NCBI GenBank assembly: GCA_934281565.1
Contig: CAKQXI010000022.1
Location: 1,145 to 25,144 of the forward strand
Length of the DNA stretch: 24,000 nucleotides
Reading direction: 5' to 3'
Source of the DNA: an uncultured Prevotella sp.
GTDB taxonomy: Bacteria; Bacteroidota; Bacteroidia; Bacteroidales; Bacteroidaceae
In this document: one piece after another, positions 3-21,334 of the stretch
Layout of the letters: every line of letters starts with the position of its first letter
Numbering within the stretch: position 1 is the first letter of the stretch
Notes under the pieces: model-generated
Database searches by the model: none
What the model was told of the DNA's origin: nothing
The model's input: only the letters and a program-made list of their open reading frames with translations
Program-made: the position numbers and the translations under genes

Positions 3-1328
3 ACAGGCTTGCCTGCTGCAAATACAACAGTAGATGTAATAAGCAATGCCACGACATTCTTTAGCTCTGCCATCAGCACTTGGAAAACAAGCAAGTTGGC
101 TTCCGACCAAAGTACACTTGCCAAACTTGATGCCTGTGACTTGCACATAGGCAAGGCTACATTCGATAACACTGCCAGCAAGATTAACTTTACAAATATG
201 GCTCATGCCATGGGACTTGCTGATATTACAAGAGAGACTAAGGCTTTACCACATTTATATAAATTAAGTACAGACCAAAGCTATACTTGGACGAATGGCT
301 CTACCTCTGTAACGGCAAGCAACAGTTTAACTAATAGTCGTAAACTCTATGATGTCACTTCTACAAGAGGTATAATGATAGTGCCACCAGCTACTGCAAC
401 ATCATTCAATAGTACCAGTACTGGCAATGATGCATGGAGTGGAGCAGTTTCCATTACTGCTGTATCCAATGCCATTGGTACAGGAACAGCCAAACTTAAA
501 TTATCTGCCTTAGACAAAGGCACTTATACTATGGCTTTAGGTGACATCTATTATTCTGATGGTGCTCTTTCTCACCAAAGCGATGCATTGCTTTCTGGCA
601 AGACTCCAATTGGGGTTGTTGGTTATATTGGCAATAACAAATGGACAGAAAGTGGTACAGGAAGTGGTCATGGTGGTCATGCCTTGGTAATGTGCCTAAA
701 GACCATCGGGTCTACTGGAAAGACAAATATAGGTATTGGCTATGTTTGGGGACCATCTGGTATCGATTTGGATGATACGAAGTTTCCTAACATGACCACT
801 GATGCCTTGATAAAAGGCTCCTATGCAAGTCAAGTTCAAGGCTCTGGATATACGGCAACAAATAATTTAGTTGCATTGGGTGAAAGTTATGTGGCTGCAA
901 CCAAGGCAAAGAAATACAATGAACTTCCTGCACCTCTAAATAAAAGTACAGGATGGTTCTTGCCTACTGTTGGTCAATATTATGCTATCTTAATAGGTTT
1001 AGGTGGTGGCAACTTTACTGAAGGTGGTTTATATGGAGGTCTTGACCATTTGGGATTTTTTAAAAGAAATGGTTCTTGTGCAGGGATTACCGATCCAATC
1101 AACAAGGCATTAGCTAAAGTTGGAGATGCTAATTATACAGATTTTTTCGGCAGTGTTAATACTTCAGCTTCAACTTCTTCAGAGTCTTCTGCAACATCTC
1201 CAATAGCACTTGATTGTGGTATAGACGATGTTACTGTGGGATATGTTACAGGTTCTATTCGTTTCTTTGGTGTAGATCCTTATTTTAAGACATCATTGCT
1301 TATGGTCCGCCCATTCCTTGCTTTTTAA
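3..1328 (+). CDS. 5'-truncated secreted/surface protein with a C-terminal DUF1566-like (Lcl C-terminal-type) domain; function unknown
   Basis: Frame 3 is open from the window edge to TAA at 1326-1328. The track start at 9 is only a TTG, so the gene probably begins upstream of the window. The C-terminal ~230 aa show the pattern I associate with DUF1566: YYSDG, PIGVVGYIG, GHALVM, TGWFLPTVGQYYAIL, and the ending MVRPFLAF. The N-terminal part is Ser/Thr/Asn-rich. The family call comes from motif memory, not a search. Confidence 0.55.
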   Translation, partial: TGLPAANTTVDVISNATTFFSSAISTWKTSKLASDQSTLAKLDACDLHIGKATFDNTASKINFTNMAHAMGLADITRETKALPHLYKLSTDQSYTWTNGSTSVTASNSLTNSRKLYDVTSTRGIMIVPPATATSFNSTSTGNDAWSGAVSITAVSNAIGTGTAKLKLSALDKGTYTMALGDIYYSDGALSHQSDALLSGKTPIGVVGYIGNNKWTESGTGSGHGGHALVMCLKTIGSTGKTNIGIGYVWGPSGIDLDDTKFPNMTTDALIKGSYASQVQGSGYTATNNLVALGESYVAATKAKKYNELPAPLNKSTGWFLPTVGQYYAILIGLGGGNFTEGGLYGGLDHLGFFKRNGSCAGITDPINKALAKVGDANYTDFFGSVNTSASTSSESSATSPIALDCGIDDVTVGYVTGSIRFFGVDPYFKTSLLMVRPFLAF

Positions 1329-1403: not shown

Positions 1404-2570
1404 ATGGTTATGACAGACTTACAACAATCAACGGCTCGTTTTGCCGATACCAAGCCACATTACTCTCTCCTTGATGGTCTTCGAGGAGTAGCAGCATTGC
1501 TCGTCGTATGGTATCATGTATTCGAGGGGTATCAATTTGGCTCTGGAGCAGCAATCATCAAGGAGATCAATCATGGTTATTTAGCTGTTGACTTCTTCTT
1601 CATCCTTTCTGGTTTTGTTATTGGCTATGCCTATGACGACAGATGGGGAAAGACACTTAGTATGCCGAACTTCTTCAAGCGTCGTCTCATTCGTCTTCAT
1701 CCTATGGTAGTGATGGGAGCAGTGATAGGACTTGTCATGTTCATCTTGCAAGGAGCGGTGGCATGGGATGGGACTCATGCCACAATATCGGCGATGATGA
1801 TAGCCTTGCTCTGTGCTATGTTCATGATACCAGCTATACCCGGTTGTAGCTATGAAGTGCGTGGCAATGGTGAGATGTTTCCTCTTAACGGTCCTGTTTG
1901 GTCGTTGTTCTTCGAGTATATTGGCAACATACTTTATGCTCTTTTCATTCGCAAGTTATCCACCAAGAACTTGGCAATATTGGCAACAGTCCTTTCTGGA
2001 GCATTGGTTTGGTTTACGGTAACCGACCCAGCAGGATACGGTATGTTTGGCATAGGTTGGACCTTGGATGGACTGAACTTTGTTGGTGGATTGCTTCGTA
2101 TGTCATGTCCCTTTACGATAGGAATGTTCCTTTCACGAGTATTCAAGCCAGTTGCCGTGAAAGGAGCATTCTGGATATGTTCATTGGTATTGCTAATCTT
2201 GTTTCATGTACCTTATATAGAGGGAAATGGAACTTATTGCCTCAATGGCATCTTTGAGGCAGTATGTATCATCTTGATATTCCCTGTCTTGGTATGGTTG
2301 GGGGCATCTGGAACAACAACTGATAGTTTTAGCACTCGTATTTGTACGTTCTTAGGCGATATTTCTTTCCCCCTTTATATCGTACATTATCCATTCATGT
2401 ATTATTTCTATGCTTGGTTGATTGATAAGAAGCTCTTTACACTTGGCGAGACTTTGCCAGAGGCACTTATTACTTGTGCCGTATCAGTCATTGTGGCATG
2501 GGTATGCTTGAAATTCTATGATATTCCACTTCGCAAATGGCTCTCCAAGCGGTTCTTGGCAAAGAAATGA
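1404..2570 (+). CDS. Acyltransferase family 3 (OafA/WecH-like) integral membrane O-acyltransferase
   Basis: 388-aa ORF with an ATG start. The N-terminal LDGLRGVAALLVVWYHV motif and about 10 hydrophobic segments are typical of the acyltransferase_3 family. It converges on nanM with a 5-bp gap. Confidence 0.8.
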   Translation: MVMTDLQQSTARFADTKPHYSLLDGLRGVAALLVVWYHVFEGYQFGSGAAIIKEINHGYLAVDFFFILSGFVIGYAYDDRWGKTLSMPNFFKRRLIRLHPMVVMGAVIGLVMFILQGAVAWDGTHATISAMMIALLCAMFMIPAIPGCSYEVRGNGEMFPLNGPVWSLFFEYIGNILYALFIRKLSTKNLAILATVLSGALVWFTVTDPAGYGMFGIGWTLDGLNFVGGLLRMSCPFTIGMFLSRVFKPVAVKGAFWICSLVLLILFHVPYIEGNGTYCLNGIFEAVCIILIFPVLVWLGASGTTTDSFSTRICTFLGDISFPLYIVHYPFMYYFYAWLIDKKLFTLGETLPEALITCAVSVIVAWVCLKFYDIPLRKWLSKRFLAKK

Positions 2571-2575
2571 GCCGA

Positions 2576-3676
2576 TTAGGGAAAGATTAATAATATTTCT
2601 GGCGTTCTCACTCCGGGTTTGAGTTCGCCACCAATATAGAAATATTTGTTTCCCCATTTAACCAGTTGTGCTCCAGCCCTTGAAAGGCGTTTGTCATATA
2701 GAGGATAAGCGTTCCATTTCTCCTTGATAGGGTTGAAGAACAACAGGTTACCATTAAATTGATACCAATCAATATCTTTCTGCAAATAATCCTCTTTCTT
2801 CACAAGTTGATAACTACCGCTGATGGCATCCCAAAATATATCCTTGTTAACACCTCCCAAACATAATATGGACTGCTTGGTAAGAATAGCAGTGGCTCCT
2901 GTCAAGGTAAGTTCTTTACCCTTGGTATCCTTGGGAGCCTCCAATTGTTTCCAAACCTTAGAGGCAATATCATAGCTGTAGCCATTGGTAGCGACTGTAC
3001 TTTGCAAACCATTGGCAAAGAAACCTCCCCAAATATATAACTTACCTTTATCTGCCACGCAAACAGGTTGAACACGAGGACATTCAGGTATCTCAGACAG
3101 ATATTCCCAATCTTGTTTCTTGCTGGCATCCCAGTGTAATAAGGAAGCCGAAGCCTTTCCATCTTGGTTTCCACCAAAAACATAAATATGATTGGTGAGT
3201 TGTGTCACAGCCATATTGTCAACGGTATATGGTAAAGATGGCAATAACTTTATGATTGCTTTGTCTTTTTTCTTATTTAATCGGATGCTTAAAACTGTCT
3301 TGAGACTATGCTCATTGTTGTTGCCTCCTATCAAAATCAAACTGTCACCCAAGGAGACGACACCACCATAAGCAGCAGGTTCTGGCAGATAACCTATGAG
3401 TTTCCAGTCTAAAGATTTATCAGATACCTTGGCAGCATAGATGCCTGCATAATATTTCTTCTTGCCTGTCTCTGGAAAATTACAGCCACCAGCCATGATA
3501 ATTCTATTGCCAATCATGCCAGCATAACAGGCAGAAACACCAAGACCGTAACCAGCTTCCTCAGATGGGAAGCCTGTCACGGTCTTGATATTGAATGATG
3601 TCTGTGCCTTGGCTATATGAAAGAGACAAAGCATCAGTACTAATAAAAGATATGTCTTAACTTTATGATTGTTCAT
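2576..3676 (-). CDS. nanM: Kelch-repeat N-acetylneuraminate mutarotase/epimerase (NanM/YjhT; cyclically-permuted mutarotase family), secreted
   Basis: Repeated Kelch-like blades are visible (IIMAGGCNF, LILIGGNN, IYVFGGNQ, LYIWGGFF, YFYIGGE). The start is placed at ATG 3674-3676 (MNNHKVKTYLLLVLMLCLFHIAKAQ), which gives a clean signal peptide. The longer track ORF to 3793 would overlap the upstream gene by 131 nt. The gene sits in a nan operon. Confidence 0.8.
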   Translation of the reverse strand: MNNHKVKTYLLLVLMLCLFHIAKAQTSFNIKTVTGFPSEEAGYGLGVSACYAGMIGNRIIMAGGCNFPETGKKKYYAGIYAAKVSDKSLDWKLIGYLPEPAAYGGVVSLGDSLILIGGNNNEHSLKTVLSIRLNKKKDKAIIKLLPSLPYTVDNMAVTQLTNHIYVFGGNQDGKASASLLHWDASKKQDWEYLSEIPECPRVQPVCVADKGKLYIWGGFFANGLQSTVATNGYSYDIASKVWKQLEAPKDTKGKELTLTGATAILTKQSILCLGGVNKDIFWDAISGSYQLVKKEDYLQKDIDWYQFNGNLLFFNPIKEKWNAYPLYDKRLSRAGAQLVKWGNKYFYIGGELKPGVRTPEILLIFP

Positions 3677-4442
3677 ATAGGTCGGCGTTCTTTTGTACTT
3701 GAGCAAACTGCGCAAGGAAATCCACATACTTATCCACGACAGCCTCAGCAAATCTCTTACCTTTCTCGGCTGTAGCCAATGCAGGATTGCCAATGCCAGT
3801 ATCCTTGCTTACCATAGACCAGTTGCGTGGTATCCAGATTTGTCCTTCTCTCAATTCCTTGATACGGAAGTTTTTAGAGTCGCCAGAGCCAGCTTCTTCT
3901 TTGTTGACTAACTCAGGATGGTAGTGCATCATGACAGAAGTCTCAACCTCGTCGGCATGGTCGCCAGGATGTTCAAAATAGTCCTTGGCAGGACACATCT
4001 TAAACCATTCGCTGGATGCAATGATAAAATCGGGATAGTCAACGGTAAGGTCGCGAATCATGTTCTTGAAACTGTTGCCACCATGACCGCTAACTATCAA
4101 CAATTTTCTGATACCTTGTATATATAAGGAAGAAACAATGTCACTAAGAATAGCCTTCTGGGTCTCATACCTTGAATGTATGCAGAAAGTCAACTCACGT
4201 TGTCCTGGGTTTTGTGCTCCCATTGTTACTGGAGGCATCACCATACTATATACATGATGCTTGTCAAATAGCTTGATGGCAGCATCGACGGCAATATCAT
4301 GCGACAAGATGCAGTCTGTCAGATATGGCAGATGCAAGTTATGTGGTTCGGTCGCTCCCCAAGGAAGTATGGCAAGCTCGTATGTATGTTGCTTGGCTGT
4401 GCCATAGTTTGAGACCGACAAATCAAATTCTTTGTTCATCAT
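3663..4442 (-). CDS. Creatininase-family (creatinine amidohydrolase fold) metal-dependent amidohydrolase; substrate unknown
   Basis: 259 aa. The motifs GATEPHNLHLPYLTD, VSGHGGN and GDHADEVETS match my recollection of the family's binuclear-metal ligand blocks (E-x-H...D, HGGN, H-x-x-x-x-E-T-S). There is no signal peptide. Its stop codon lies 14 nt inside the nanM start region. Confidence 0.75.
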   Translation of the reverse strand: MMNKEFDLSVSNYGTAKQHTYELAILPWGATEPHNLHLPYLTDCILSHDIAVDAAIKLFDKHHVYSMVMPPVTMGAQNPGQRELTFCIHSRYETQKAILSDIVSSLYIQGIRKLLIVSGHGGNSFKNMIRDLTVDYPDFIIASSEWFKMCPAKDYFEHPGDHADEVETSVMMHYHPELVNKEEAGSGDSKNFRIKELREGQIWIPRNWSMVSKDTGIGNPALATAEKGKRFAEAVVDKYVDFLAQFAQVQKNADLYEQS

Positions 4443-4462
4443 TTCTTGTATATACTGTTTGT

Positions 4463-5644
4463 TTATTTGTTAAGGATTTCTTGACAGAGTGAATAGCTCT
4501 TGATCATCATACGTGGGATATGGAACGGACCCTTGAAGATGTTGCCTTTGGCAGGTTGTGCCACTGTTCCGTCACGATGCAGGTAACCATACCATTCACC
4601 ATACTGCTTGTCTGGGAAATGGGCGTATGTCCATTCACTGATGCGTTGATGCTTGTAGATATACTCATCATCACCAGTAGCGAGGTAAGCATAGAGCGAA
4701 GCGATAATTGTCTCACACTGAGGCCACCAGAACTTCATGTCCTGGGAATAATCCTGTGCAGGCAAGTTGCGGCAATCACAGAAATTGATGATGCCACCAT
4801 ACTGCTTGTCCCAGCCCCAGTCCCAAGACCAGTCGAATATCTGCAAGGCGAGTCTTAGGAGTTCCTTATCCCAACCTCTGAGCTTGGACTCCTCCATGAT
4901 GAACCATGAAGTCTCAATGCAATGACCAGGGTTGATGGTTCTTGTCATGTTGGTATCAATGAACTCACCGTTCATGCCAACGGTTTCCAACAAACACTTA
5001 AACTCTGGATGGATGAAATACTTCTTCAGTTTCTCAATGGACTCGTCAATCTGAGCTGTTAGCTTAGGGTCGTTGATAACTTTGCGGATGCAAGAACCCA
5101 CATTGATAAGAATCATGACGATACTATGACTCTGCAACTTCACCGACTCCTCGAACTTAGGCTCCAAGAAGCCTGGGGTAGTCAAAAAGCGTTGTGTATC
5201 CTTGAATATCTCCAAGGCACGCTCGGCGTATTTCTGTTCGCCAGTAGCCAAGGCATACTCCGACATGGCGATGGCAGCGAAAGTCTCCGAGAACACATAA
5301 CGGCGTTTACGGATAGGCTGACCATCGGCAGTGACGGTAAAATACATATGTCCGTTATCGTCAAAGCAATGCTTCTCTATGAAGTCAATAGCACTCTTTG
5401 CTGCTTCCAGCCATTGCTGGTTCTTTTCTACATTGTTATAGGCAAAGGCACAGACAAAGGCAAAACGCCCTTGGAACCAAACGGACTTGGTAGAGTCCAT
5501 CAAACTTCCATCCCTGTCAAGACAAGTATAGACACCACCGTTCTTCTTGTCCCAGCCATGCTCCATCCAGAAAGGCATGATATTCTCGGTCAAATCGGCC
5601 TTATAGGATGTTGCCCATTGATTGATATAATCTTTTATATCCAT
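4463..5644 (-). CDS. nanE: N-acylglucosamine 2-epimerase (AGE/renin-binding-protein family), the Bacteroides-type NanE converting ManNAc to GlcNAc
   Basis: 393 aa. The length and alpha/alpha-barrel AGE-like sequence fit the family (FWMEHGWDKKNGGVYTCLDRDG, WFQGRFAFV, WWPQCE, GEWYGYLHRDG). It lies directly downstream of nanA. Confidence 0.85.
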   Translation of the reverse strand: MDIKDYINQWATSYKADLTENIMPFWMEHGWDKKNGGVYTCLDRDGSLMDSTKSVWFQGRFAFVCAFAYNNVEKNQQWLEAAKSAIDFIEKHCFDDNGHMYFTVTADGQPIRKRRYVFSETFAAIAMSEYALATGEQKYAERALEIFKDTQRFLTTPGFLEPKFEESVKLQSHSIVMILINVGSCIRKVINDPKLTAQIDESIEKLKKYFIHPEFKCLLETVGMNGEFIDTNMTRTINPGHCIETSWFIMEESKLRGWDKELLRLALQIFDWSWDWGWDKQYGGIINFCDCRNLPAQDYSQDMKFWWPQCETIIASLYAYLATGDDEYIYKHQRISEWTYAHFPDKQYGEWYGYLHRDGTVAQPAKGNIFKGPFHIPRMMIKSYSLCQEILNK

Positions 5645-5669
5645 AGGTCTATATTTTTTTTATGGCTTG

Positions 5670-6587
5670 TTAAAATTGATTGCAACGCTCAAAGAAGTTG
5701 ATGTCTTCCAACTCTTTCTTCATGGCAGCTTCTTCCTCGTCAGTCATGTTGCGGAAAGGAACACGGTTAGGACCTAAGTCGAATCCTAAGAGTTTCATGA
5801 TGCGCTTGCCTCCAACGATGTTGCCACGATAGTGACAGATGACATTGATAACTTCTTGTGCAAAGTTTTGTTTCTCTCTCGCTGTCTCAATGTCGCCTTT
5901 GTTCCAAGCATCGATGATGCCAACAAGTTCACGACCATTGTAGTTGGTCGTACCACCAATTCCACCTTTTGCGCCACCTTGTGCCAAGCTGGGAAGGATA
6001 GTCTCGTCCTGTCCATGCAGCATATCATACTTGCCATTCTTGTACAAACGGCATTGGTTATATTCGTACAAGCTCTCAAACGTATATTTGATACCAGCAA
6101 AGTTAGGGATACGACCATCCACGGCTTTCAACAAATCAAGCATAGGCAAGTAAGCACCGTTGAAAGCAGGGATATGATAGTAATAAAAAGGAAGATTTGG
6201 AGCAGCAGAAGCTATTTCCTCACAGTACTTCACAAGTTCCTCAATACGACCAATGTGTGGGAATGGAGGAGCCATGGAACCTATGCCCCAAACACCTAAT
6301 TTCTGTGCATGCTCTGCCAAACGGCGGCTCTCACGTAGACAGCAACTACCTACATGAACTATGACCTTGAAGCCCTCTGGAGCAACTTCCATCCATCTTT
6401 CTGCCAATTTCATACGTTCCTCAGTGGTCAACATATAACCTTCACCAGAAGAACCATTGATGAACACACCTTTAAGCCCATTCTTTTGCAACATCTTGGC
6501 GTATGTTTCAATGGGTTCTAAGTTTACATCTCCATTACTATAAAACGGAGTGAAAGGAGCGTCAATTAATCCGATAATCTTTTCCAT
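5670..6587 (-). CDS. nanA: N-acetylneuraminate lyase (DHDPS/NAL family)
   Basis: 305 aa. Class I aldolase motifs are present: GVFINGSSGEG, YYYHIP, and GIKYT containing the Schiff-base lysine. The nan operon context supports the call. Confidence 0.9.
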   Translation of the reverse strand: MEKIIGLIDAPFTPFYSNGDVNLEPIETYAKMLQKNGLKGVFINGSSGEGYMLTTEERMKLAERWMEVAPEGFKVIVHVGSCCLRESRRLAEHAQKLGVWGIGSMAPPFPHIGRIEELVKYCEEIASAAPNLPFYYYHIPAFNGAYLPMLDLLKAVDGRIPNFAGIKYTFESLYEYNQCRLYKNGKYDMLHGQDETILPSLAQGGAKGGIGGTTNYNGRELVGIIDAWNKGDIETAREKQNFAQEVINVICHYRGNIVGGKRIMKLLGFDLGPNRVPFRNMTDEEEAAMKKELEDINFFERCNQF

Positions 6588-6643
6588 AATGAGTGATTTT
6601 ATTTATTGTTCTTTATTTTATGATGATAATATGTATGTCGTCT

Positions 6644-7878
6644 TTATTCCAAATTGTCAGTCTTTGGCTTTAGGAACACCAACTGCAAAGTTAGTGCCAC
6701 AATTACTACAATGCCCAACAAGGCGAAGCCAAGCCCCAAGTTTCCACCATCAGTCCACTTGCCCAGCACTTGGGTAACCAATGCGCCAGCGAAGACTCCC
6801 ACCATGTTCATGATGCCATACGCCGTTGCCCTATATTTGGCAGAAATAATCTGGCATAAGATAGGCATATTGTTGGCATCGAACATACCATATCCTACGC
6901 CGAATAGCAAACCTGCCCCTACTACTGCTGTCAAGCTATGGCCAAAGCCCAGGAGGAACAAGGCAGGAATGGTCATGCCCAAGCCTATGGCACTGGTATA
7001 GACACGGCCTCTAATATTCTTCTGTACCCATTTGTCGGAAAGAAATCCACCGATAAGTACACCGATGAATGAAGATACAGCTATCGTTATTGTTGACATT
7101 GGTCCTGCTTGTGACATGGATATGCCTAAGTTGTCGGCAAACAACGTTGGCAACCAGTTCTTGGTAGCCCACCCGGGTAAACTTGGGGCAGCGAAGTAAA
7201 TCAAGATAACCCAGAAAGCCCATGTAGACAACACCACGGAGAGTCCCTTGAAGATGTTTTCTTTGGCTGGAGAAGCCTTGACCTTGGCTTGTACTGGAAC
7301 TTTTTTCTTATCTTTGTCATGAAGCAACAAGAATAGTATGATGGAGTACCCGATGCCGATGATGCCAAACCAATGGAAGGTAGAGTGCCAAGAGAACATG
7401 GCTGCAACAGTAGCACCAAAGCCACCGATGGCTTGACCGACATATAGACCTGTCATGTGGACACCTATTGCCAAAGACCTGGACCTGCCCTCGTGCCAGT
7501 CGGCAATCAAGGACAAGGCGGAGGTATGTAAAGTGCCTCACTGATACCCATCAAAGCACGGAGCCAATATAGTTGATGAAAATTGGTGGCATACCCCATC
7601 AAGTAGGTTACTGCCGACCAAACGAACAGGCTTCCTACCACAAGTCGCTTCCTGCTGATACGGTCTGCTACGATGCCGGCAAAAGGACTTACTATGCCAT
7701 AAATCCAAAGGAACACAGCCATCAATGCTCCAAAAGCCTCGGCTTGGTTGAGTTCAACAATGTCTATTTTCATTGCTCCCTGCATCGTAGAGAGCATCTG
7801 GCGATCCATATAATTAAGGAGTGCCACTACCCAGAGAAGTGCCACTACCAGCCAGGGATAATATTTACTATTTTTCAT
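6644..7878 (-). pseudogene. nanT: MFS sialic-acid permease (NanT-like) split by a single-nucleotide frameshift
   Basis: Two overlapping ORFs (7507-7878 and 6644-7516) together make one 12-TM MFS protein. The N-terminal frame reads ...RALMGISEALYIPPPCP*. The other frame is open from 7537 and continues ...ALSLIADWHEGRSRSLAIGVHMTG. Inserting one nt in the cctccgcc stretch (about 7517-7525) restores YIPxALSLIADWH. Confidence 0.8.
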
Positions 7879-7927
7879 CTGTTTTGTCTTTAGTTATTAT
7901 AAGGTAATATATGTATGTTAGGAGAGG

Positions 7928-10042
7928 TTACTTTGCCTTTCCCCTGAATGTTGATGTTGGCAAACCATCTTGGTTCACCAGATTGGCGCGAGTGAAAGGT
8001 TGCCAGCCATATCTTACATATATAGGAACTCTCACTTTGGGAGAGGTGAGGCGTACTTTGTTTCTTTCTATCGTGACAGTGGCAGGATAGAACAGTCCGT
8101 CTTCTTCTGCAATCTCGAAGCATGAGGGAGCTTTGCCATCTGAAGTACGAAGCCCATCGCCATAATTAAATGAAACAACCAGTGTGGCACCGTCTTTGGT
8201 CACATTTTCAAAGATAGGTCCTGAAGGCGTGACATGATGGGCGTATGTCTTGTTTAGTGCCCATCGTCCCAAGCGTTCACCAACAGGTTGCTTGTTGGTG
8301 GGATGCACATCAAGGGAGTCGCCGTAATCCGAAGATACAGCCATGCCTGTGTTGGGGATAGACTTCATCAGACGAAGTTGACTATCCCTGAACCATGTCC
8401 ATGACGGACGGTTTAAGCTGGACAACTGTACAAAGTAGAATGGCATCTGTGGGTTCTTCCAATTAGTCCTCCAACTGTCTACCAGCAAGTGGAATAACTT
8501 TTCATGAGCTTCCATATTATGGGCATTCGACTCACCTTGGTACCAGATGACACCTTTGATAGGATATTGCTGCAAAGGCATGATGCCACTCTCGTAAAGG
8601 TAACATGGTTCATAAGGATGTCTTCCCAGTCGAGTACTGTCATTGGTAAGGTTCTTGGCAGCCCGATTTCTTACCCAGTCTTGGATAAAGTCATTATATA
8701 GCCAATCTTTCAAGATGGCAGGAAACTGGGTTTCCAAGGTATTGCGGTCTATCCAAGACTCTGTTGGCGAACCACCGATGGCATTGCATATCAATCCTAC
8801 TGGTACTTTCAAGCTATCACGCAACATCTTGCCATAATAGTAAGCTACGGCAGAGAACTTAGCTGCCGTTTCTGGCGTAGTTGGCTTCCAGCTTGCATTC
8901 TCGAAGTATTGTAAGTGATTGAGAGAATCAAGGCAAGAAGTGCGCCATGCCACATCGTATGTTTCCCATCTTCCTTTCATGTCATAAAGGCGTAAGTCAG
9001 AATCATTTGCCAAAGGAATGTCTTTCTTGCCAGTCGAAGCCTGATGCAGCATGAATGCCATGTTTGATTGTCCAGAACACAACCAAACTTCGCCTACTGC
9101 TACATGACGGAATATCTTCTTTTGTCTATCTGTCTCGATGGTGAGCGTATAGTCATCGCCAACTTTCAGGGGTTGTAGAGTTACGCACCATTCACCACGG
9201 TTATTGGCAATAGCCATTGATTTTTGCTTTGCTATGCTTACAACCACTTTTGTTCCAGCATTGGCTGTACCATGGATGTCAAGTGGAACATTGCGTTGCA
9301 ATACCATATAATCGGTGTAGAGGTTAGAAAGTTTCAAGCCTCCGTAGTTGCCCGTAATACCACCATATACTGTCTTGGCGAGGATGCCTGCACCCTCTGC
9401 GTTGGGATGGATGGCATCTGGCAATAAGTTGGGATAAGGATAGAGAGACGCATGGAAGTCTATTAACTCCGCTCCACTTACTCGTGCTACCGTCTCAATG
9501 GCATTTTGTATCTCGTCATGCCAAAGTTTGGTACCAGAAATAAAACGAGGATGACGGTCGGCGATGGGAGTCATGCGAGCCAAGATGAAGCGTACTTTGG
9601 GATTGGCACTGCGTAGGGAATCCATCAAGGAAAGATAATCTTTAACAAACTCATCCCGGTAGTTGGGCCAGTTACGAGGGTCTGTGTCATTGATACCTAA
9701 ATGTATCACGGCGATGTCGCCCTTGAAAGCCATTGCTTCCTTGAACTCAGTTTGTTGTATATAAGGACGGTGACCATGGTTCAGCAATGTAGCACCGGGC
9801 TTTCCAAAGTTTCCTATCAGGTACTTGTTGCCAAGCATCTTCTGTAGTTGCACAGGATAAGAGAAGTGTTCTCTGTCTTTGATGCCTGTACCATACGTAA
9901 TGCTATTGCCGATACAAGCGACCTTGATTTGCTGTATTTGTTTCTTTTTGGCTGCCGATAACGTAAGGGAACCAAAAGAGAGCATTGACAGCAAGAATAC
10001 TGCCAATACTCTTTTTGAAAAAGTTAATTTACCATCCATCAT
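7928..10042 (-). CDS. nanS: Two-domain sialate O-acetylesterase (N-terminal SGNH/GDSL hydrolase plus C-terminal SASA/DUF303 domain), secreted
   Basis: SGNH blocks are present: ACIGNSITYG, HLGINDTD, DAIHPN. The second domain carries the SASA-type WLCSGQSNM. The track start at 10084 is a TTG that overlaps a -7 box. The first ATG is at 10040-10042 (MMDGKLTFSKRVLAVFLLSMLSFGSLTLSA, a signal peptide). The architecture resembles the Tannerella NanS and Bacteroides EstA type. Confidence 0.85.
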   Translation of the reverse strand: MMDGKLTFSKRVLAVFLLSMLSFGSLTLSAAKKKQIQQIKVACIGNSITYGTGIKDREHFSYPVQLQKMLGNKYLIGNFGKPGATLLNHGHRPYIQQTEFKEAMAFKGDIAVIHLGINDTDPRNWPNYRDEFVKDYLSLMDSLRSANPKVRFILARMTPIADRHPRFISGTKLWHDEIQNAIETVARVSGAELIDFHASLYPYPNLLPDAIHPNAEGAGILAKTVYGGITGNYGGLKLSNLYTDYMVLQRNVPLDIHGTANAGTKVVVSIAKQKSMAIANNRGEWCVTLQPLKVGDDYTLTIETDRQKKIFRHVAVGEVWLCSGQSNMAFMLHQASTGKKDIPLANDSDLRLYDMKGRWETYDVAWRTSCLDSLNHLQYFENASWKPTTPETAAKFSAVAYYYGKMLRDSLKVPVGLICNAIGGSPTESWIDRNTLETQFPAILKDWLYNDFIQDWVRNRAAKNLTNDSTRLGRHPYEPCYLYESGIMPLQQYPIKGVIWYQGESNAHNMEAHEKLFHLLVDSWRTNWKNPQMPFYFVQLSSLNRPSWTWFRDSQLRLMKSIPNTGMAVSSDYGDSLDVHPTNKQPVGERLGRWALNKTYAHHVTPSGPIFENVTKDGATLVVSFNYGDGLRTSDGKAPSCFEIAEEDGLFYPATVTIERNKVRLTSPKVRVPIYVRYGWQPFTRANLVNQDGLPTSTFRGKAK

Positions 10043-10081
10043 ATCATATCTTGTCTTAAGGTTTTGTTTACTAAACTTTCG

Positions 10082-10089
10082 CAAATGTA
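10082..10089 (-). promoter_or_regulatory. Internal -7 promoter box (TACATTTG on the minus strand) upstream of the esterase gene
   Basis: The plus-strand caaatgta is TACATTTG on the minus strand, matching TAnnTTTG. It lies about 40 nt upstream of the ATG at 10042. Confidence 0.4.
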
Positions 10090-10222
10090 GAAGTTAAAGA
10101 ATTTAAAGAAGTTAGAGAACTTAAAGCCAAATGTTTTATGGCTTAAAATGAGCAAATAGGCTGATAGTCTTTCACTTCTAACGTAAAAAAACTCCGATTA
10201 TTATGTACTTGGGCTTAGAAGT

Positions 10223-10260
10223 GAGAAGAAGAAGGAAAAAACCTTCTTCTTCTCTTTTTT
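10223..10260. terminator. Perfect 13-bp stem-loop between susD and the esterase gene (terminator/attenuator-like)
   Basis: gagaagaagaagg (10223-10235), an A6 loop, then ccttcttcttctc (10242-10254), followed by T6 on the plus strand (10255-10260). On the minus (operon) strand the same stem forms with a U6 loop but no downstream U-tract. Confidence 0.5.
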
Positions 10261-10326
10261 ATCTATGTCAAAACACTATTACTGCCTTTTCAGGCATGAA
10301 CAAAATAAATAACCTCTCATGGTTAA

Positions 10327-11883
10327 TCAATATCCTGGAGTTTGCTTCAATTCACCATTCAAGCCACGGGCATTCTCGTCTATCGGCCACAATAGCCTAT
10401 CTTTATTGGCTGTAGAATATTTCGTAACGTAGTTTGCGCCCATCAGGCGAAGGTCATGCCAACGTTTGCCCTCAAAGAGGAATTCACGGCATCTTTCTTT
10501 CAAGACAGCCTCAATGGCATCGGCATCACTTCCTACAAAAGAGTTGTTGTTATAGAAAGAAGCATCCTTGTCATTAGGATAAGCCACCTCGGTTTGGTGT
10601 GCATTGAAGTAAGTTTCGCCATAAGCACGTTTTCTTACCTCGTTGATTTCGGTAGCGGGGTCCTCACCCAACAGAACCTTTGCTTCTGCCAACCCTAACA
10701 GGCAATCGGCATAGCGATAGATTGGATAATCGTCAAGCCAACTACGAGTAGACTGTCCTGGGAGCAGCACACCTTGGTACTTATAGGCAATGTTGCCGAT
10801 GAAAGTAAGTTTGCCATCCTTATCTTTGGTATATATATCTTTCAGGCTACCAGCTTTGCGGGTATCCCCGTCACGATAGAGTTGTGACCACAGCTTGTCA
10901 TTGAGTGATACACGCATGACACCATTCATGTCTTTCATGGCAGACTGGTTCAATGCGGTGCCATCCGCCTCATAATAGCTGTTCATGAACTGCTGGTTCA
11001 TCACCAAGGTTAGGCGATAGGTATCTTGCCACATACTGTACTCATCTTTTCCATTGTAAATAGCGAAGATGATTTCCTTGTTGCTCTTGTTGTCATAAGC
11101 GAAGACTTGGGTAAAATTGTTCAGCAAAGCGACATCAGCTTTCTTCACATTTTCGTATGCGGTCTTTGCTATCTGATAGTCGGCGTTTCCACCGTTCATC
11201 TGGCGACCACTCCAGAGGTAAACCTCACCTTTTAACATTTCTGTAGCAGCCAAGGACCAATAGTTCCTGCCATTGGTGAACTTATAGTTGTCGCCATATG
11301 CTGTTTCCGAGGCAGTGATGTCTTTCTTGATTTGTGCCATTACCTCTGCTGCGGAAGAAGCAGCTTTACCCATATTGCCGATGTTGACCGTGCTACCTTT
11401 GGTATAGTCAAGCATCAAGACAACATCTCCATAGGTCCTAAGCAACTGGAAGTACATATAAGCACGTAAGCCGTATGCCGCACCGAGATAATTGTTCTTG
11501 GTGGTGGCATCCAAGAGTTTTGTGTTCTCTGCTTGTGTTATCAGCAAGTTGACTTGATTGATCAACGTATAGCAAGAGCCAAAGTTCGTGATAATAGGAT
11601 TGGATGCACTCAATAGGTTGTTCCATAGTTCCTGATAACCACTGGGAGATTCGCCACTGAAAGGAGAACCTGCATAGAGATTGGAACGCATTTCACCCCA
11701 CTCATGGAGGGTAAAGTTACGTTCACGGAAGAGTCCTTGGAGACCTGTGTTGAAAGCACTGAACTGGTCTGCTTCCTTCCAATAACCTGCATCGGTGATT
11801 TCGCTCTCAGGCTCCACATCAAGACAGCTCGTCACAGACAAAGCCATGCATCCTGCTGCGATATATGTTAAAAACTTTTTCAT
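10327..11883 (-). CDS. SusD/RagB-family outer-membrane glycan-binding lipoprotein (NanU-like by context)
   Basis: 518 aa. There is a lipoprotein signal (MKKFLTYIAAGCMALSVTSC). SusD-like features include the C-terminal FLFEGKRWHDLRL motif. It starts 12 nt downstream of the SusC-like gene. Confidence 0.85.
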   Translation of the reverse strand: MKKFLTYIAAGCMALSVTSCLDVEPESEITDAGYWKEADQFSAFNTGLQGLFRERNFTLHEWGEMRSNLYAGSPFSGESPSGYQELWNNLLSASNPIITNFGSCYTLINQVNLLITQAENTKLLDATTKNNYLGAAYGLRAYMYFQLLRTYGDVVLMLDYTKGSTVNIGNMGKAASSAAEVMAQIKKDITASETAYGDNYKFTNGRNYWSLAATEMLKGEVYLWSGRQMNGGNADYQIAKTAYENVKKADVALLNNFTQVFAYDNKSNKEIIFAIYNGKDEYSMWQDTYRLTLVMNQQFMNSYYEADGTALNQSAMKDMNGVMRVSLNDKLWSQLYRDGDTRKAGSLKDIYTKDKDGKLTFIGNIAYKYQGVLLPGQSTRSWLDDYPIYRYADCLLGLAEAKVLLGEDPATEINEVRKRAYGETYFNAHQTEVAYPNDKDASFYNNNSFVGSDADAIEAVLKERCREFLFEGKRWHDLRLMGANYVTKYSTANKDRLLWPIDENARGLNGELKQTPGY

Positions 11884-11895
11884 TGTTGTCTAATT

Positions 11896-14800
11896 TTAGA
11901 ATGTTACTGATAAACCAAAAAGTAAGGTGCGTGGCGTTGGGTAACGACCATTGTCGATACCTGCTCCATAAGTGCTGTATGCTGCAGGCTCTGGAGAAGC
12001 ACCGTCATAGCCTGTGATATAGAACAAGTTCTGACCTGTTACATAGACAGAGGCATTTTCCATTCCAATCTTGCTGATCCAGTTCTTTGGTAAGTTCCAG
12101 TTGAGGGTTATCTCACGTAGGGCAAGATAGTCTCCCTTTTCATAGAAACGTGAGCTGTTGCCATTTACTGCAGTGTAACCATTGTTCTCACGAGTGATGT
12201 TTTTCTTGTTCAACTGGTCTGCATAGGTGAAGACAGGAAGGTCAGCACTTGTATTAGTCTCTGACCATGTGTCTTTCACCTTGTCTATGATATTGAACTG
12301 TCCCTGGTATTGTCCTAATGAACGAGCCTTGAGGTCGTTATAGATGGTGTGACCGAGGGAATAATCGAAGCGAGCATAGAGAGATACATTCTTATAACCA
12401 AAGGTTGTCGTGAAACCACCAGTTACCTTTGGGAAAATGTTACCTACTACCACACGGTCGAGGCGACTGATATGTCCATCGCCATTCACGTCTTCCCAAC
12501 AAACATCACCGGGTTCGATTGGTTTCCAACCATCGGATTCCTTATAGGTCTTGCCTGTGTTAGGATTAATTTGGTTTGCCATGCCAGGACCATAGAGGTT
12601 GGCAATGTCGTCGATGCGATTATTGGCATTTGCCTTTACATCGTCCCAGTCCTTGAAGATATGTTGCTGGTTATAGCCAACCAAGTCACCTAACTTGCCA
12701 CCTTCGCGGTATCCACCAATCCACTTGACAGGAGTATTGCCATTGGCATCAACAGGTCCTGCGGCAACCTCATAACCACCAATCTGGTTGAAAGGCTTGT
12801 CACTGCTTGGCAATAGAAGAACCTTGTTGGAAACAGAAGTAAGGTTTGCCGTTACATCCCACTTGAAGTCCTTGTTATTGATGATGTTAGCTCTCATCTC
12901 AAACTCAAAACCGCTGTTGCGTAGCTTGCCAAGGTTCGTCTTCATGCTTGCGAAACCAGTATAACCAGGCAAACTCATGTCGGTGAGCAAGTTGCTGGTC
13001 GTACGGTTATAATAATCGAGGATGAAGCTCAGGCGATTCTTAAAGAAACTGATGTCAAGACCAGCTTCGAAAGATGTACTCTGTTCCCATTTGAGGGCTG
13101 TGTTGGTCAATGTTGAGTTATAATAACCAGTGGTACCGTTATAGGTCTTGGCACCAATCTGTTTATAAAGACCATAGATGTCGAAGTTACCGATGCCATT
13201 CACATTACCATTGACACCATAGCTCAAACGTGGCTTTAAGTTGCTGATGACATTGGATATCTTGGAATTCTTCCAGAAATCTTCCTCCATTACGTTCCAT
13301 CCTACAGATACACCTGGGAAGAAACCCCAACGGTTGTCTTTCAGCTTGGAGATACCATCATAACGATAGGTGAAGGAGAAAAGATATTTCTGCTTATAGT
13401 CGTAATTGATACGACCAAAGAGTGATTCAATGCGGTATCTGGTCTTTGAACTGGTTGTTGCAGTACGAGTGGCACCCACGTTCAAGGTTGGTATGGCATC
13501 AAATGGTGAGTTCTGTGTAGTTGCGCTCAACTCATAATAATGATAGTCAAAGTACTCACCGCCAATCATGGCATCTACGTTATGATTTTCAAAGAATGTA
13601 TCATGATAGTTCAGTGTTCCACTCAACTGGATCTGGGTGAAACGATTGATTTCTGCATTGGCTTCACGGGTTCTGTTCATTGTGGATGAAGTCTGTTCTT
13701 GGTAAGCCTTGTTGAATCTCTCGTTTTGATAGTCATAGTGATACAATGAAGAATTGGCACTGAACACAAGTTTCTTAGGGATGATGCTCAAGTCAAAGCC
13801 TAAGTTATAAGTCTGCTTGCGTGTACCATTGCTGCTTGTCAGTTTGTCACGGTAATAGTTAGGGTTACCATCACCCGTGTTCCAGCCTGCTGCTGGTGAG
13901 CCATCCTCTAACCAAGGATTCCAAGTAGGACGCTGCGAACGAGTACGGTAGAAGAACTCATAAGTACCAATCCACAAGGATGGCTGCTGAGACCAACTGT
14001 AAGTTGTGCCAGCTTTTACGTTCAGGAAAGGAAGTATCCAATAGGAACCATTGAAAGAGCCATTGAAACGCTTATAGCCTGTACCTTTTACAGAACCATC
14101 CTCGTTATAATAGCCAAGGCTGGCAGCGAAAGTACCTTTGTCGTTTCCACCGCTAAGGCTCAGATAGTGGTCTTGGGTAATGGAAACATCGCGGAAAGCA
14201 GCATCATCTATCTGCCCACTATAATCTTTGTATAGAAGTTTCTTGCCCTCGTAATATGGGTCGTCCATGACAAGCCAGCCCTGGTTTACAAGATCCTGGT
14301 TGCTGTCATCAAGATATTTTAAGTCAATCAACTTGTTGCCAACGCCATAACCAACTTGATTGTCTACTGCACTGGCTTTAGCATTGTTGTTTGTATAACG
14401 CTTATAACCCAAGCGATTGTAATAAATATAATCATGGGCGTTGCAGAAGTCATATCCATAGCGGGTGAAGTTCATACCTAACTTCGCTTTGTAATTGATG
14501 CTTGTCTTGCCAGTCTTGCCACTTTTGGTTTGTACCAAGATAACACCACCATTGGCACGAGCACCGTAGATGGCAGTGGAAGCAGCATCTTTCAGGACTT
14601 GAACCGACTCAATGTCAGAAGGGTTGATGTCACTGAGACTTTCACGTACGATACCGTCTACAACTATCAAAGCACTGTTGTTACCACCAGTGATGGATGC
14701 GCCACCACGCAAAGTAATCCTTGGACTTGTACCAGGCTGACCAGATTCACTGATGACACGAAGACCTGTTACCGTACCTTGCAAGGCATTGCCGACATTA

Positions 14801-15177
14801 CTAACTGCTGCATTCTCCAATACCTTGTTGTCCATCTTGGAGATGGCGGTAGTAAGTGTGGCACGTTTTTGTTGTCCACCATAACCAGTAACAACAACTT
14901 CGCCCAAACTCTGTGTATCTTCTTTCAGAGTCACCTTGAGCGGAGTGCCATTCCATTTTACTTCCACAGGGTTAAGTCCGATGTATGAGATAACCAGTAC
15001 ATCACCAACTTTTGCATCTTCGAATGAGAACTTACCGTCAAGGTCGCTGACGGTTCCCTTGGACGAACCTTTAACCATGATAGATGCACCGATGACAGGT
15101 TCTCCTTGGTCATCAGTAACAATTCCAGTGCAAGCCTTGCTGTTTTGTTGTGCTTTTTGCGCAGACATTGCAGCCAT
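11896..15177 (-). CDS. SusC/RagA-family TonB-dependent outer-membrane transporter (NanO-like by context); the ORF as it stands lacks a signal peptide
   Basis: 1093 aa. It has an N-terminal carboxypeptidase-regulatory-like domain (GIVTDDQGEPVIGASIMVKGSSKGTVSDLDGKFSF), a plug (VVVTGYGGQQKR, DAASTAIYGARANGGVILVQTK), a long beta-barrel and a C-terminal F. The first ATG in this frame gives MAAMSAQKAQQ with no hydrophobic leader (see 15178-15260). Confidence 0.9.
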   Translation of the reverse strand: MAAMSAQKAQQNSKACTGIVTDDQGEPVIGASIMVKGSSKGTVSDLDGKFSFEDAKVGDVLVISYIGLNPVEVKWNGTPLKVTLKEDTQSLGEVVVTGYGGQQKRATLTTAISKMDNKVLENAAVSNVGNALQGTVTGLRVISESGQPGTSPRITLRGGASITGGNNSALIVVDGIVRESLSDINPSDIESVQVLKDAASTAIYGARANGGVILVQTKSGKTGKTSINYKAKLGMNFTRYGYDFCNAHDYIYYNRLGYKRYTNNNAKASAVDNQVGYGVGNKLIDLKYLDDSNQDLVNQGWLVMDDPYYEGKKLLYKDYSGQIDDAAFRDVSITQDHYLSLSGGNDKGTFAASLGYYNEDGSVKGTGYKRFNGSFNGSYWILPFLNVKAGTTYSWSQQPSLWIGTYEFFYRTRSQRPTWNPWLEDGSPAAGWNTGDGNPNYYRDKLTSSNGTRKQTYNLGFDLSIIPKKLVFSANSSLYHYDYQNERFNKAYQEQTSSTMNRTREANAEINRFTQIQLSGTLNYHDTFFENHNVDAMIGGEYFDYHYYELSATTQNSPFDAIPTLNVGATRTATTSSKTRYRIESLFGRINYDYKQKYLFSFTYRYDGISKLKDNRWGFFPGVSVGWNVMEEDFWKNSKISNVISNLKPRLSYGVNGNVNGIGNFDIYGLYKQIGAKTYNGTTGYYNSTLTNTALKWEQSTSFEAGLDISFFKNRLSFILDYYNRTTSNLLTDMSLPGYTGFASMKTNLGKLRNSGFEFEMRANIINNKDFKWDVTANLTSVSNKVLLLPSSDKPFNQIGGYEVAAGPVDANGNTPVKWIGGYREGGKLGDLVGYNQQHIFKDWDDVKANANNRIDDIANLYGPGMANQINPNTGKTYKESDGWKPIEPGDVCWEDVNGDGHISRLDRVVVGNIFPKVTGGFTTTFGYKNVSLYARFDYSLGHTIYNDLKARSLGQYQGQFNIIDKVKDTWSETNTSADLPVFTYADQLNKKNITRENNGYTAVNGNSSRFYEKGDYLALREITLNWNLPKNWISKIGMENASVYVTGQNLFYITGYDGASPEPAAYSTYGAGIDNGRYPTPRTLLFGLSVTF

Positions 15178-15260
15178 AGAAAACTTGCATAGAGCGGAAC
15201 CATGCTACTTGCTCCTCCAAGTAGCAAAGCTAAGCTAATAGATTTTAAGCGTGTTGCCAT
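15178..15260 (-). other. Signal-peptide-like 5' coding segment of the SusC-like gene, in a different reading frame from the body
   Basis: The ATG at 15258-15260 opens MATRLKSISLALLLGGASSMVPLYASF, a typical n-region plus h-region. It lies 46 nt downstream of a -7 box. The body frame is open back to 15204, so a 1-nt shift between 15178 and 15204 (for example in the A4/T4 run at 15180-15183) would fuse leader and body. Confidence 0.65.
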
Positions 15261-15306
15261 AACTAATGAAATAGTTTTAAGTTAATAATTATGTCCTTCG
15301 ACGCGG

Positions 15307-15314
15307 CAAAGATA
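15307..15314 (-). promoter_or_regulatory. -7 promoter box (TATCTTTG on the minus strand) for the susC-led nan operon
   Basis: The plus-strand caaagata is TATCTTTG on the minus strand. It is positioned about 46 nt upstream of the ATG at 15260. Confidence 0.5.
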
Positions 15315-15644
15315 TGCTTTAGTATTGAATTTATATCATTTTATCATGTTAAATTTTATAAAATAGCTATATTTTTTAATTTTAATATACAAAAATGGAA
15401 TAATAATTATTTAAATATGAATTATTTTGGCTGATTAGATAATTTATTCTTTGATATAAGTTTATTTGAATTAATTATTAAAACTGTTTTATTAAATGAA
15501 TGTAGAATATTATTCGTAAATAATAAATATTAAAATGATAGTAAGTGCATTGAATATTTAATGATGGGATCTCAAAATATTTGGATTAATCTTTATTTTG
15601 GCTAAAAATATTAAATTTCAAAGGGTTTGTGTTTGTTTTTTATT

Positions 15645-15675
15645 TATATTTGCATAAAAATCTCTATATTTGCAT
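15645..15675 (+). promoter_or_regulatory. Tandem duplicated -7 boxes (2 x TATATTTGCAT, 20 bp apart) upstream of the ROK regulator gene
   Basis: The exact 11-mer tatatttgcat occurs at 15645-15655 and 15665-15675. Each contains TAnnTTTG. The second ends 25 nt before the ATG at 15698. Confidence 0.5.
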
Positions 15676-15697
15676 CATAAACATATTATCATCTATC

Positions 15698-16903
15698 ATG
15701 GTACAGCAATTCTTAAACAATATTATAAAAGATAAGAGCAAGTCCAATGCCAAGGCAGATGTGTTGGGGCAACTCGCCCAGCAGGGCGGACTTACCATCT
15801 CTGAACTTTGCCAATGCTTGGGATATAGCATACCTTTTATTACTAAATCGCTCAATGAATTGATAAATGCTGGTCTGGTACAGGAAACTGGAAAAAAGGA
15901 AACCTATGCCAAACGTGCGCCACGTGTCTATGACCTCATACCTGAGTCTGGTTACTTCCTTGGAATAGACCAAGGAAAGGACTGCCTGAGCTTAGGTGTC
16001 TGTGATTTTTGTGGGAATATGGTCCACAAGAAGAAAGTGCCTTTCTTTTATGACGATAGTGAGGAATGTTTTGAGGAACTTGTAAATATCATCACTCGAT
16101 ATATTGATGAGTGTGGTATAGAGAAGAGCCTCATCCTCAAGGCTTGCATGAGCATCGGAGGTCGTGTCAACCCTGTGGAAGGAAAGGCATATAGCTGTTT
16201 TACTTGTCAGAAAGAGCCTTTGGCAAATGTATTGTCTGAGAGAACAGGACTGTCTACTTGCATAGATAATGATTCAAGATGTATGACATATGGCGAGTTC
16301 CTCAAGGGCTGTTGCAAGGGCGTGAAGAATGCTATATTCGTTAATATCAGTTGGGGATTGGGAATAGGAATTATCTTTGATGGCAAGCTCTATTTCGGTA
16401 ATTCGGGATATTCTGGAGAGTTCGGACATATGCACATTTATAACAATGGTATTATATGCCATTGTGGCAAGACTGGCTGTTTGGAAACAGAGGTCTCTGG
16501 AATGGCATTGCAGCGAAAGATGACGGAATTGCTTCTTTCTGGTGAAACTTCCATCTTGTCGGACAAGGTTGTCAACAAGAAAGAACCTTTGACCTTGCAA
16601 GACATTCTGGATGCCATCGCCAAGGAAGATGTGCTTAGCATCGAAGCCTTGCAGAAAATGGCGAGCGAACTGGGTACTAACCTGGCTGGCATCATCAATA
16701 TCTTCAACCCAGAGATGCTGGTTATTGGTGGAGACTTGTCGGTTACGGGTGATTACTTGATACAACCTATCAATATGGGCATCAAGAAATTTTCCTTAAA
16801 TGTCGTAAATGAAGATTCTAAGATTGTCATATCTGAACTAAAAGACCAAGCTGGATTAATTGGGGCTTGCCTGATGGCTCGACACAAGCTATTGTCTGAA
16901 TAA
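15698..16903 (+). CDS. nanR: ROK-family transcriptional regulator with an N-terminal winged HTH (NanR-type sialic-acid repressor)
   Basis: A wHTH is present (LTISELCQCLGYSIPFITKSLNELINAGLVQETG). The ROK zinc motif GHMHIYNNGIICHCGKTGCLE is present. The position of the kinase phosphate-1 motif reads LGIDQGKD instead of DxGGT, which favours a regulator over a kinase. The start is set at the first ATG. The track's GTG start at 15629 lies in A/T-rich DNA that contains the promoter boxes. Confidence 0.8.
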   Translation: MVQQFLNNIIKDKSKSNAKADVLGQLAQQGGLTISELCQCLGYSIPFITKSLNELINAGLVQETGKKETYAKRAPRVYDLIPESGYFLGIDQGKDCLSLGVCDFCGNMVHKKKVPFFYDDSEECFEELVNIITRYIDECGIEKSLILKACMSIGGRVNPVEGKAYSCFTCQKEPLANVLSERTGLSTCIDNDSRCMTYGEFLKGCCKGVKNAIFVNISWGLGIGIIFDGKLYFGNSGYSGEFGHMHIYNNGIICHCGKTGCLETEVSGMALQRKMTELLLSGETSILSDKVVNKKEPLTLQDILDAIAKEDVLSIEALQKMASELGTNLAGIINIFNPEMLVIGGDLSVTGDYLIQPINMGIKKFSLNVVNEDSKIVISELKDQAGLIGACLMARHKLLSE

Positions 16904-16926: not shown

Positions 16927-21298
<4,372 letters not shown>

Positions 21299-21303
21299 CA
21301 ATT

Positions 21304-21334
21304 AAAAGGGTTGCCACAATCTGGCAACCCTTTT
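21304..21334. terminator. Bidirectional rho-independent terminator between the convergent GH2 and ATPase genes
   Basis: A perfect 13-bp stem: aaaagggttgcca (21304-21316), loop caatc, then tggcaaccctttt (21322-21334). The A-tract and T-tract arms allow it to work in both directions. The right arm overlaps the ATPase stop codon. Confidence 0.8.

Follow-up and report, generated by a model that had tools for sequence, protein, structure and literature searches.

A creatininase-family gene in the sialic-acid utilisation locus of an uncultured Prevotella sp. and its possible role as an accessory hydrolase of amino-sugar catabolism

Sialic-acid foraging influences the colonisation of the gut, the oral cavity and the vagina by Bacteroides, Prevotella/Segatella and Muribaculaceae, and the sialic-acid pathway is commonly regarded as fully known. 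The stretch of DNA analysed here, referred to as the window, comprises 24,000 nucleotides of an uncultured Prevotella sp. (assembly GCA_934281565.1, contig CAKQXI010000022.1, positions 1,145 to 25,144 of the forward strand) and contains a Bacteroidetes-type sialic-acid utilisation (nan) locus, in which a gene of the creatininase family (CRE) is located between an epimerase gene and the mutarotase gene nanM. The encoded protein belongs to a subfamily of the creatininase fold that is uncharacterised and restricted to Bacteroidales. As summarised by Severi et al., the kinase RokA is supplied through NanA and NanE-II, an alternative epimerase, before NagA and NagB act (PMC8461474). A review published in JBC in 2023 lists lyase, anomerase, oxidoreductase, kinase, epimerase, esterase and mutarotase, and no hydrolase of this type (PMC10017367). 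The claim of a preceding sequence-only reading of this DNA that no described step of the pathway uses a creatininase-family enzyme agrees with these articles and with a comparative-genomics study of sialic-acid use, in which such an enzyme is likewise missing. A full-text search of the literature, limited to papers outside subscription-only access, found no paper which joins a creatininase-family gene with nan genes; matches on C. perfringens and on infant-gut creatinine were irrelevant.

Lyase, N-acylglucosamine 2-epimerase (AGE), MFS transporter, SusC/D pair, esterase, mutarotase and ROK regulator, the parts of a Bacteroidetes-type nan locus, are all found within positions 2576..16903. The operon genes are located on the minus strand in the order susC-like, susD-like, nanS, nanT, nanA, AGE, CRE and nanM; adjacent genes are -14 to 56 nt apart, the one exception being a spacer of 242 nt after the susD-like gene. 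CRE is an open reading frame at 3663..4442, which encodes a protein of 259 amino acids, a predicted di-zinc hydrolase with a match to PF02633. Upstream of it lies the gene for the AGE-type epimerase (NanE-II; 4463..5644; PF07221, E 3e-45; NF052547, E 1e-101), from which it is separated by a gap of 20 nt. Downstream, nanM (2576..3676) encodes a cyclically permuted NanM-type mutarotase (TIGR03548, 305.9 bits versus a cut-off of 243; PF24996) with a signal peptide at its start (MNNHKVKTYLLLVLMLCLFHIAKAQ). The ATG of nanM is found at 3676 and the TAA of CRE at 3665..3663, and the CRE stop codon therefore lies 14 nt inside nanM. The coordinates confirm both the 20-nt gap and the position of the stop codon given in the sequence-only reading.

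Further upstream, the operon encodes an N-acetylneuraminate lyase (NanA/NanL; 5670..6587; PF00701; NF003164, E 7e-42, which is under the cut-off of that model), which is 81-97% identical to the lyase genes of related nan loci. The MFS sialic-acid transporter of the NanT type (6644..7878) is split into two open reading frames, 7507..7878 and 6644..7516, both of which match PF07690; compared with the related loci L006, L013, L014 and L029, a deletion of 1 nt is present near 7520; either the transporter gene is truly a pseudogene in this strain or the base was lost during sequencing or assembly. nanS (7928..10084; PF13472, PF03629) encodes a two-domain sialate O-acetylesterase (SGNH and SASA), translation of which probably starts at an internal Met near 10042. 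The operon is headed by a SusC-like gene (11896..15177; Plug, TonB_dep_Rec and CarboxypepD_reg domains), followed by a SusD-like gene (10327..11883; SusD_RagB), which together occupy the position of the NanO/NanU pair. A hairpin with a perfect 13-bp stem (GAGAAGAAGAAGG...CCTTCTTCTTCTC) at 10223..10254, in the 242-nt stretch that separates nanS from the susD-like gene, may act as an intra-operon RNA stabiliser or attenuator. CRE is probably co-transcribed with the susC/D-like genes, nanS, nanT, nanA, AGE and nanM. A terminator and promoter scan, performed with a tool whose coverage lies outside Bacteroidetes promoters, gave chance-level counts and no signal between AGE, CRE and nanM; tRNA and Rfam scans of the window returned no RNA genes. 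On the plus strand, a divergent unit encodes a ROK-family regulator or kinase with an N-terminal helix-turn-helix domain (15629..16903; PF00480 and MarR_2) and a homolog of the YhcH/DUF386 sialic-acid anomerase (16927..17373; PF04074, E 2e-48), which is followed by a gene for a GH2 beta-galactosidase (17387..21298; GH2 domains).

The 259-amino acid protein matches the PF02633 creatininase hidden Markov model with 180.3 bits (gathering threshold 31.3; E 5.3e-53) over profile positions 12-238 of 238, which bears out the family assignment of the sequence-only reading. An AlphaFold2 model (pLDDT 75.6) matched the structure 3LUB with an E value of 1.6e-24 and creatininases at about 1e-8, and a search of the PDB with this model revealed no other fold below E 0.1; the modelled protein is thus assigned the creatininase alpha/beta fold. 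Since a signal peptide is absent, the protein is expected to reside in the cytoplasm, as had been proposed before. The metal-ligand blocks, which the sequence-only reading had described as intact, are indeed all present (E32-P-H34...D43, H120-G-G-N and H162-A-D-E-V-E167-T-S). In the profile alignment to the creatininase of P. putida, E32, H34 and D43 correspond to Glu34, His36 and Asp45, H120 corresponds to His120, H162 to the catalytic His178 and E167 to Glu183; Tyr121-Glu122 of creatininase (GHYEN) are replaced by Gly-Gly (GHGGN). The putative ligand and catalytic residues E32, H34, D43, H120, H162 and E167 are invariant in 91 relatives, as are G121, G122, H37, C87, H89, R130, R206, W28, W146, W203 and W208. 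Within the Q-N-P-G-Q-R loop, N78 to Q81 are invariant in the same set, and Q77 and R82 are found in 87 and 90 of the 91 proteins, respectively. By analogy with the homolog 3LUB, the metal centre is most likely a di-zinc site. The dN/dS ratio of CRE versus its closest orthologs is 0.03-0.04 and is similar to that of AGE; judged from the sequences, the gene is under strong purifying selection. CRE is a real gene with an expressed-protein-like sequence, and its product is very likely an active metalloenzyme.

In a library clustered at 50%, the entire Bacteroidales group collapses into one representative, and 60 proteins reach an E value of 1e-30. A search for domain fusions (Rosetta-stone proteins) among 150 representatives found none, and all of these are at most 307 amino acids long. 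P0145, a candidate fusion of PF02633 and PF01408, stems from a contig of 2.5 kb and is not backed by the context of the loci L084-L086; in L072, a stop codon lies between the creatininase-family gene and a GDSL esterase gene, i.e., the two are separate genes.

The fold comprises enzymes of several named activities, none of which fits the protein encoded in the window. The equivalog model for creatinine amidohydrolase (EC 3.5.2.10), TIGR04448, is matched with 74.9 bits versus a cut-off of 235, and the Tyr121/Glu122 pair of that enzyme is Gly-Gly here; genes for creatinase or sarcosine oxidase were not found in the window. A genuine creatininase is therefore effectively excluded. For the mycofactocin peptidase MftE, the score is 69.2 bits versus 172 (TIGR03964), and the window is devoid of radical-SAM and mftA-type genes. 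The model of the 3-dehydro-scyllo-inosose hydrolase IolN (NF041098) is matched partially with 42.4 bits versus 245, and no iol genes are located nearby. As these scores fall far under the respective cut-offs, the protein is regarded as a member of the fold with none of these activities.

One genome per species was scanned for relatives of CRE, which were found in 404 genomes; the best 80 of the loci were analysed, and homologs of the nan genes of the window were placed in them by tblastn. At least one nan gene is located within 10 kb in 63 of these 80 species-level loci; nanA, AGE or nanT are present in 47, nanM in 43 and nanS in 28. The nan-linked loci span three families' worth of taxa, namely Prevotella/Segatella, Bacteroides and Muribaculaceae, and differ in gene order: nanT-nanA-AGE-CRE(-nanM) is found in the window and in many Prevotella, nanM-nanT-nanA(-AGE)-CRE in other Prevotella, nanT-nanA-AGE-nanS-nanM-CRE in Muribaculaceae, and nanA-AGE-nanT-CRE-nanM-esterases-susC/D in Bacteroides. 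The same theme recurs in the neighbourhoods nanT-yhcH-CRE, esterase-GH20-GH2-GH20-CRE-nanM-GH92 and nagB-nagB/PIG-L-CRE, and in the S. copri neighbourhood CRE-BNR protein-susC/D-GH20-nanS. In a neighbour-joining tree, every major clade has nan-linked members, and for this reason the nan linkage of CRE looks ancestral. nanM is positioned directly downstream of CRE in 22 of 85 loci. In most Prevotella loci of this order, the two genes overlap (-4, -11 or -23 nt) or are at most 21 nt apart, and in Bacteroides the gap amounts to 80-250 nt. The survey proposed in the sequence-only reading, whose idea a lack of conserved linkage would have refuted, does not refute it: CRE is linked to nanA, AGE, nanT, nanM and nanS across three families, with varying gene order, although the linkage is not universal; likewise, the overlap with nanM is real in the window, but typical only of some Prevotella lineages.

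Two further observations were made on these loci. In loci of the Segatella copri type (L014, L015, L018, L019, L025, L027 and L029), a gene for a sialidase-like BNR_2 protein of 425 amino acids replaces nanM after CRE (e.g., 10790..12067 in L029), followed by susC/D, GH20 and nanS. Many of the closest loci (L004-L013, L020 and others) derive from metagenome-assembled genomes which are titled Gemmiger, Akkermansia, Escherichia coli or Lachnospiraceae; their gene content is Prevotella-like, and these bins look mislabelled.

Several loci show that CRE can outlast its nan neighbours. In a number of Prevotella loci, the CRE-nanM pair alone remains. In one Prevotella clade (L030, L046, L049, L057 and L068), nanM-nanT-nanA-AGE has been lost locally, and CRE is intact. 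The members of this clade and the nan-complete loci L045, L047 and L058 have a common backbone consisting of nagB, nagB/PIG-L ... CRE and GH97; the deleted stretch lay between nagB/PIG-L (or nanS) and CRE, and the flanking GH97 gene was kept. The retention of CRE beside nagB after the local loss of the nan core points to a role which does not strictly depend on NanA-type cleavage. Together with the existence of clades outside nan contexts, it speaks against an exclusive dedication of the enzyme to sialic acid.

The explanation favoured here, if only tentatively, is that CRE encodes a cytoplasmic, metal-dependent hydrolase, which catalyses an accessory de-N-acylation of an N-acyl amino sugar in the route from N-acetylneuraminic acid (Neu5Ac) via N-acetylmannosamine (ManNAc) to N-acetylglucosamine (GlcNAc) or its 6-phosphate. 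We infer the hydrolytic chemistry, the type of substrate and what individual residues do as follows. The accessory hydrolytic step would act on an amino sugar of the route leading from sialic acid through ManNAc and GlcNAc to glucosamine 6-phosphate, most likely by cleaving an acetyl or glycolyl group off the nitrogen of an anionic, N-acylated amino sugar. The attack on the amide carbonyl would come from a hydroxide that bridges the metals of the di-zinc centre, with His162 serving as proton shuttle, and the conserved arginines (R130 and R206, and R82 of the loop) would hold a carboxylate or phosphate, consistent with an anionic substrate. This de-N-acylation is preferred because most characterised members of the family split amide bonds on or beside a ring and because the gene survives beside nagB in the absence of the lyase gene. 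A further argument is that sialic-acid genes, hexosamine genes and TonB-dependent importers persistently accompany CRE. The specific substrates named in the sequence-only reading, such as N-glycolylmannosamine or the lactam of neuraminic acid, are speculation.

A number of observations weigh against this explanation. The pathway is already complete with lyase, AGE, RokA, NagA and NagB (PMC8461474), and in some of the Prevotella loci NagB is already fused to a PIG-L deacetylase domain. The presence of IolN, a C-C hydrolase, within the family means that amide chemistry is not guaranteed, and a literature search for expression, mutant or biochemical data on any member of the subfamily found none. 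Owing to the frameshift in nanT, the operon may have lost part of its function in this strain, unless the shift is a sequence error. Furthermore, linkage to nan genes is not universal and is missing from whole clades; in total, 17 of the 80 loci are without a nan gene within 10 kb. In the clade of 3LUB (73-94% identity to 3LUB; loci L084-L086, L089, L095 and L096), the gene is preceded by a gene for a TonB-dependent receptor of 764 amino acids and followed by a gene for a Crp-like regulator on the opposite strand. The proteins of this clade carry the exchange D164G, two residues past the catalytic His, and those of the fragilis group additionally Q77H; because of this own conserved context and the exchanges near the catalytic His, the clade looks like a paralog with a different imported substrate. 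In the B. ovatus/xylanisolvens/acidifaciens group, the gene is located between an extracytoplasmic function (ECF)-sigma/anti-sigma pair and a susC/D pair, i.e., in a polysaccharide utilisation locus of the ECF-sigma type, with GH127, GH141 and rhamnosidase-like genes upstream.

The more distant homologs examined (37-45% identity) are not linked to nan genes. Two of them (42-45% identity) adjoin genes of an amino-sugar type, one a formyltransferase and a WbqC gene, the other genes for a GFO/IDH/MocA oxidoreductase and a class-III aminotransferase, which are weak hints at amino-sugar chemistry. A URO-D (PF01208) gene is found within about 7 kb of three unrelated distant homologs with 37-42% identity (L092, 1962..3026; L093, 19..1044; L094, 3671..4780), and this proximity may be due to chance or may be a hint about the chemistry of the wider clade.

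The tight pairing of CRE with nanM, which is the next gene downstream in about a quarter of the loci and overlaps or nearly abuts CRE in most Prevotella of that order, would also be in line with an enzyme acting at the level of sialic acid itself, i.e., before the lyase, on imported sialic acid or on a form that is resistant to NanA, such as N-glycolylneuraminic acid (Neu5Gc), an intramolecular lactone or lactam, or a molecule with a residual acyl group. CRE-nanM pairs which survive alone, nanT-yhcH-CRE triplets and the adjacency of nanS and CRE point in the same direction. However, the Prevotella clade described above retains CRE after the local loss of nanM, nanT, nanA and AGE, sister clades with the same ligands are found in non-nan contexts, and NanM is periplasmic whereas the creatininase-family protein is cytoplasmic. 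A strictly sialic-acid-level role is therefore considered somewhat unlikely and is ranked below the de-N-acylation of an amino sugar.

A role with no relation to glycans, in which a housekeeping or detoxifying hydrolase merely travels with the nan genes or the protein is a true creatinine amidohydrolase, would account for the loci without nan genes and for the unrelated neighbours of the 3LUB clade and the distant homologs; however, the linkage has outlasted many rearrangements in three families, the creatininase equivalog cut-off is missed by a wide margin, the Tyr-Glu pair is replaced by Gly-Gly, and genes of creatinine catabolism are absent from the window, so that such a role is unlikely. 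Still less probable is a non-amide use of the metal site, whether to open the ring of a keto-sugar acid or interconvert its anomers, or to break a C-C bond in a retro-Claisen reaction like that of IolN. This idea draws on the membership of IolN, the 3-dehydro-scyllo-inosose hydrolase, in the family, on the inference that an alpha-keto acid would chelate the di-metal site, and on the nan accessory protein YhcH/NanQ, a metalloprotein which opens the Neu5Ac ring (PMC10017367). The IolN model, however, is matched at only 42 bits, most characterised members cleave amides, and a second ring-opening enzyme would be redundant beside the yhcH homolog in the locus.

CRE is under purifying selection, encodes an intact di-metal site and has persisted in nan operons through rearrangements, and it thereby stands out as a specific candidate, either for an accessory reaction that the pathway still lacks or for a substrate specificity that would be new to the creatininase fold. 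It is conceivable, and judged to be somewhat less probable than the assignment of the window protein as a de-N-acylase, that the Bacteroidales subfamily as a whole represents a previously unknown step of host sialic-acid and amino-sugar catabolism, e.g., a cytoplasmic de-N-acylation of an N-glycolyl or N-acetyl intermediate. If true, the widely cited five-enzyme pathway of Bacteroidetes would be incomplete for natural mixtures of sialic acids. CRE itself represents an uncharacterised form of a known enzyme fold; the pathway around it is well studied, and the gene is abundant in gut taxa of importance. Since the crystal structure of a paralog exists, the hypothesis is cheap to test by substrate screens, mutants and transcriptomics, and the outcome would correct misleading annotations as 'creatinine amidohydrolase' in studies of creatinine metabolism in microbiomes.

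The window also contains genes at its margins. On the plus strand, a gene for a membrane acyltransferase of the Acyl_transf_3 type (1404..2570) is convergent with nanM, with the two stop codons 5 nt apart; a copy with 84% identity is located near the nan cluster of L006. It is preceded by an open reading frame for 439 amino acids without a Pfam match (9..1328). Beyond the GH2 gene, an AAA-ATPase-like gene (21333..22469, minus strand) is followed by a second gene for a SusC-like TonB-dependent transporter, which begins at about 23040 on the plus strand and extends past the end of the window at 24000.

Among solved structures, 3LUB comes closest; this 'putative creatinine amidohydrolase' (YP_211512.1) from B. 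fragilis NCTC 9343 was determined by structural genomics and has no assigned function. It belongs to the same Bacteroidales subfamily as the window protein (phmmer E 2.9e-102, about 61-65% identity), and all ligand residues match; the structure contains 24 native internal zinc ions in 12 chains, i.e., two per chain (PMC3975891). In contrast to the window protein, 3LUB falls into a separate clade with a TonB-dependent receptor/CRE/Crp-like context and carries Q77H and D164G, and its substrate may thus differ. The creatininase of P. putida (1J2T, 1V7Z, 3A6x) resembles the window protein in its fold (Foldseek E about 1e-8, TM score 0.62-0.65), its Glu/His/Asp/His ligands and its catalytic His, but shares only 17-20% identity with it, has the substrate and second-metal ligands Tyr121-Glu122 in place of Gly-Gly, and is linked to creatine catabolism, a context which is missing here. 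MftE and IolN belong to the same Pfam family and have the HGGN-type metal site, as does the formamide hydrolase ArfB; these enzymes illustrate that the fold can accommodate ring-attached substrates of the peptide, formamide and C-C kinds. In its genomic behaviour, CRE resembles the accessory nan enzymes NanM, NanS, YhcH/NanQ and NanOx/NanY, which are encoded by conserved non-core nan genes and ready forms of sialic acid for the core pathway (PMC10017367; PMC8461474), whereas their folds and chemistry are unrelated to those of the creatininase family. The reverse applies to the metal-dependent amino-sugar de-N-acetylases at the end of the pathway, whose chemistry is analogous to the one proposed here, although the protein families differ.

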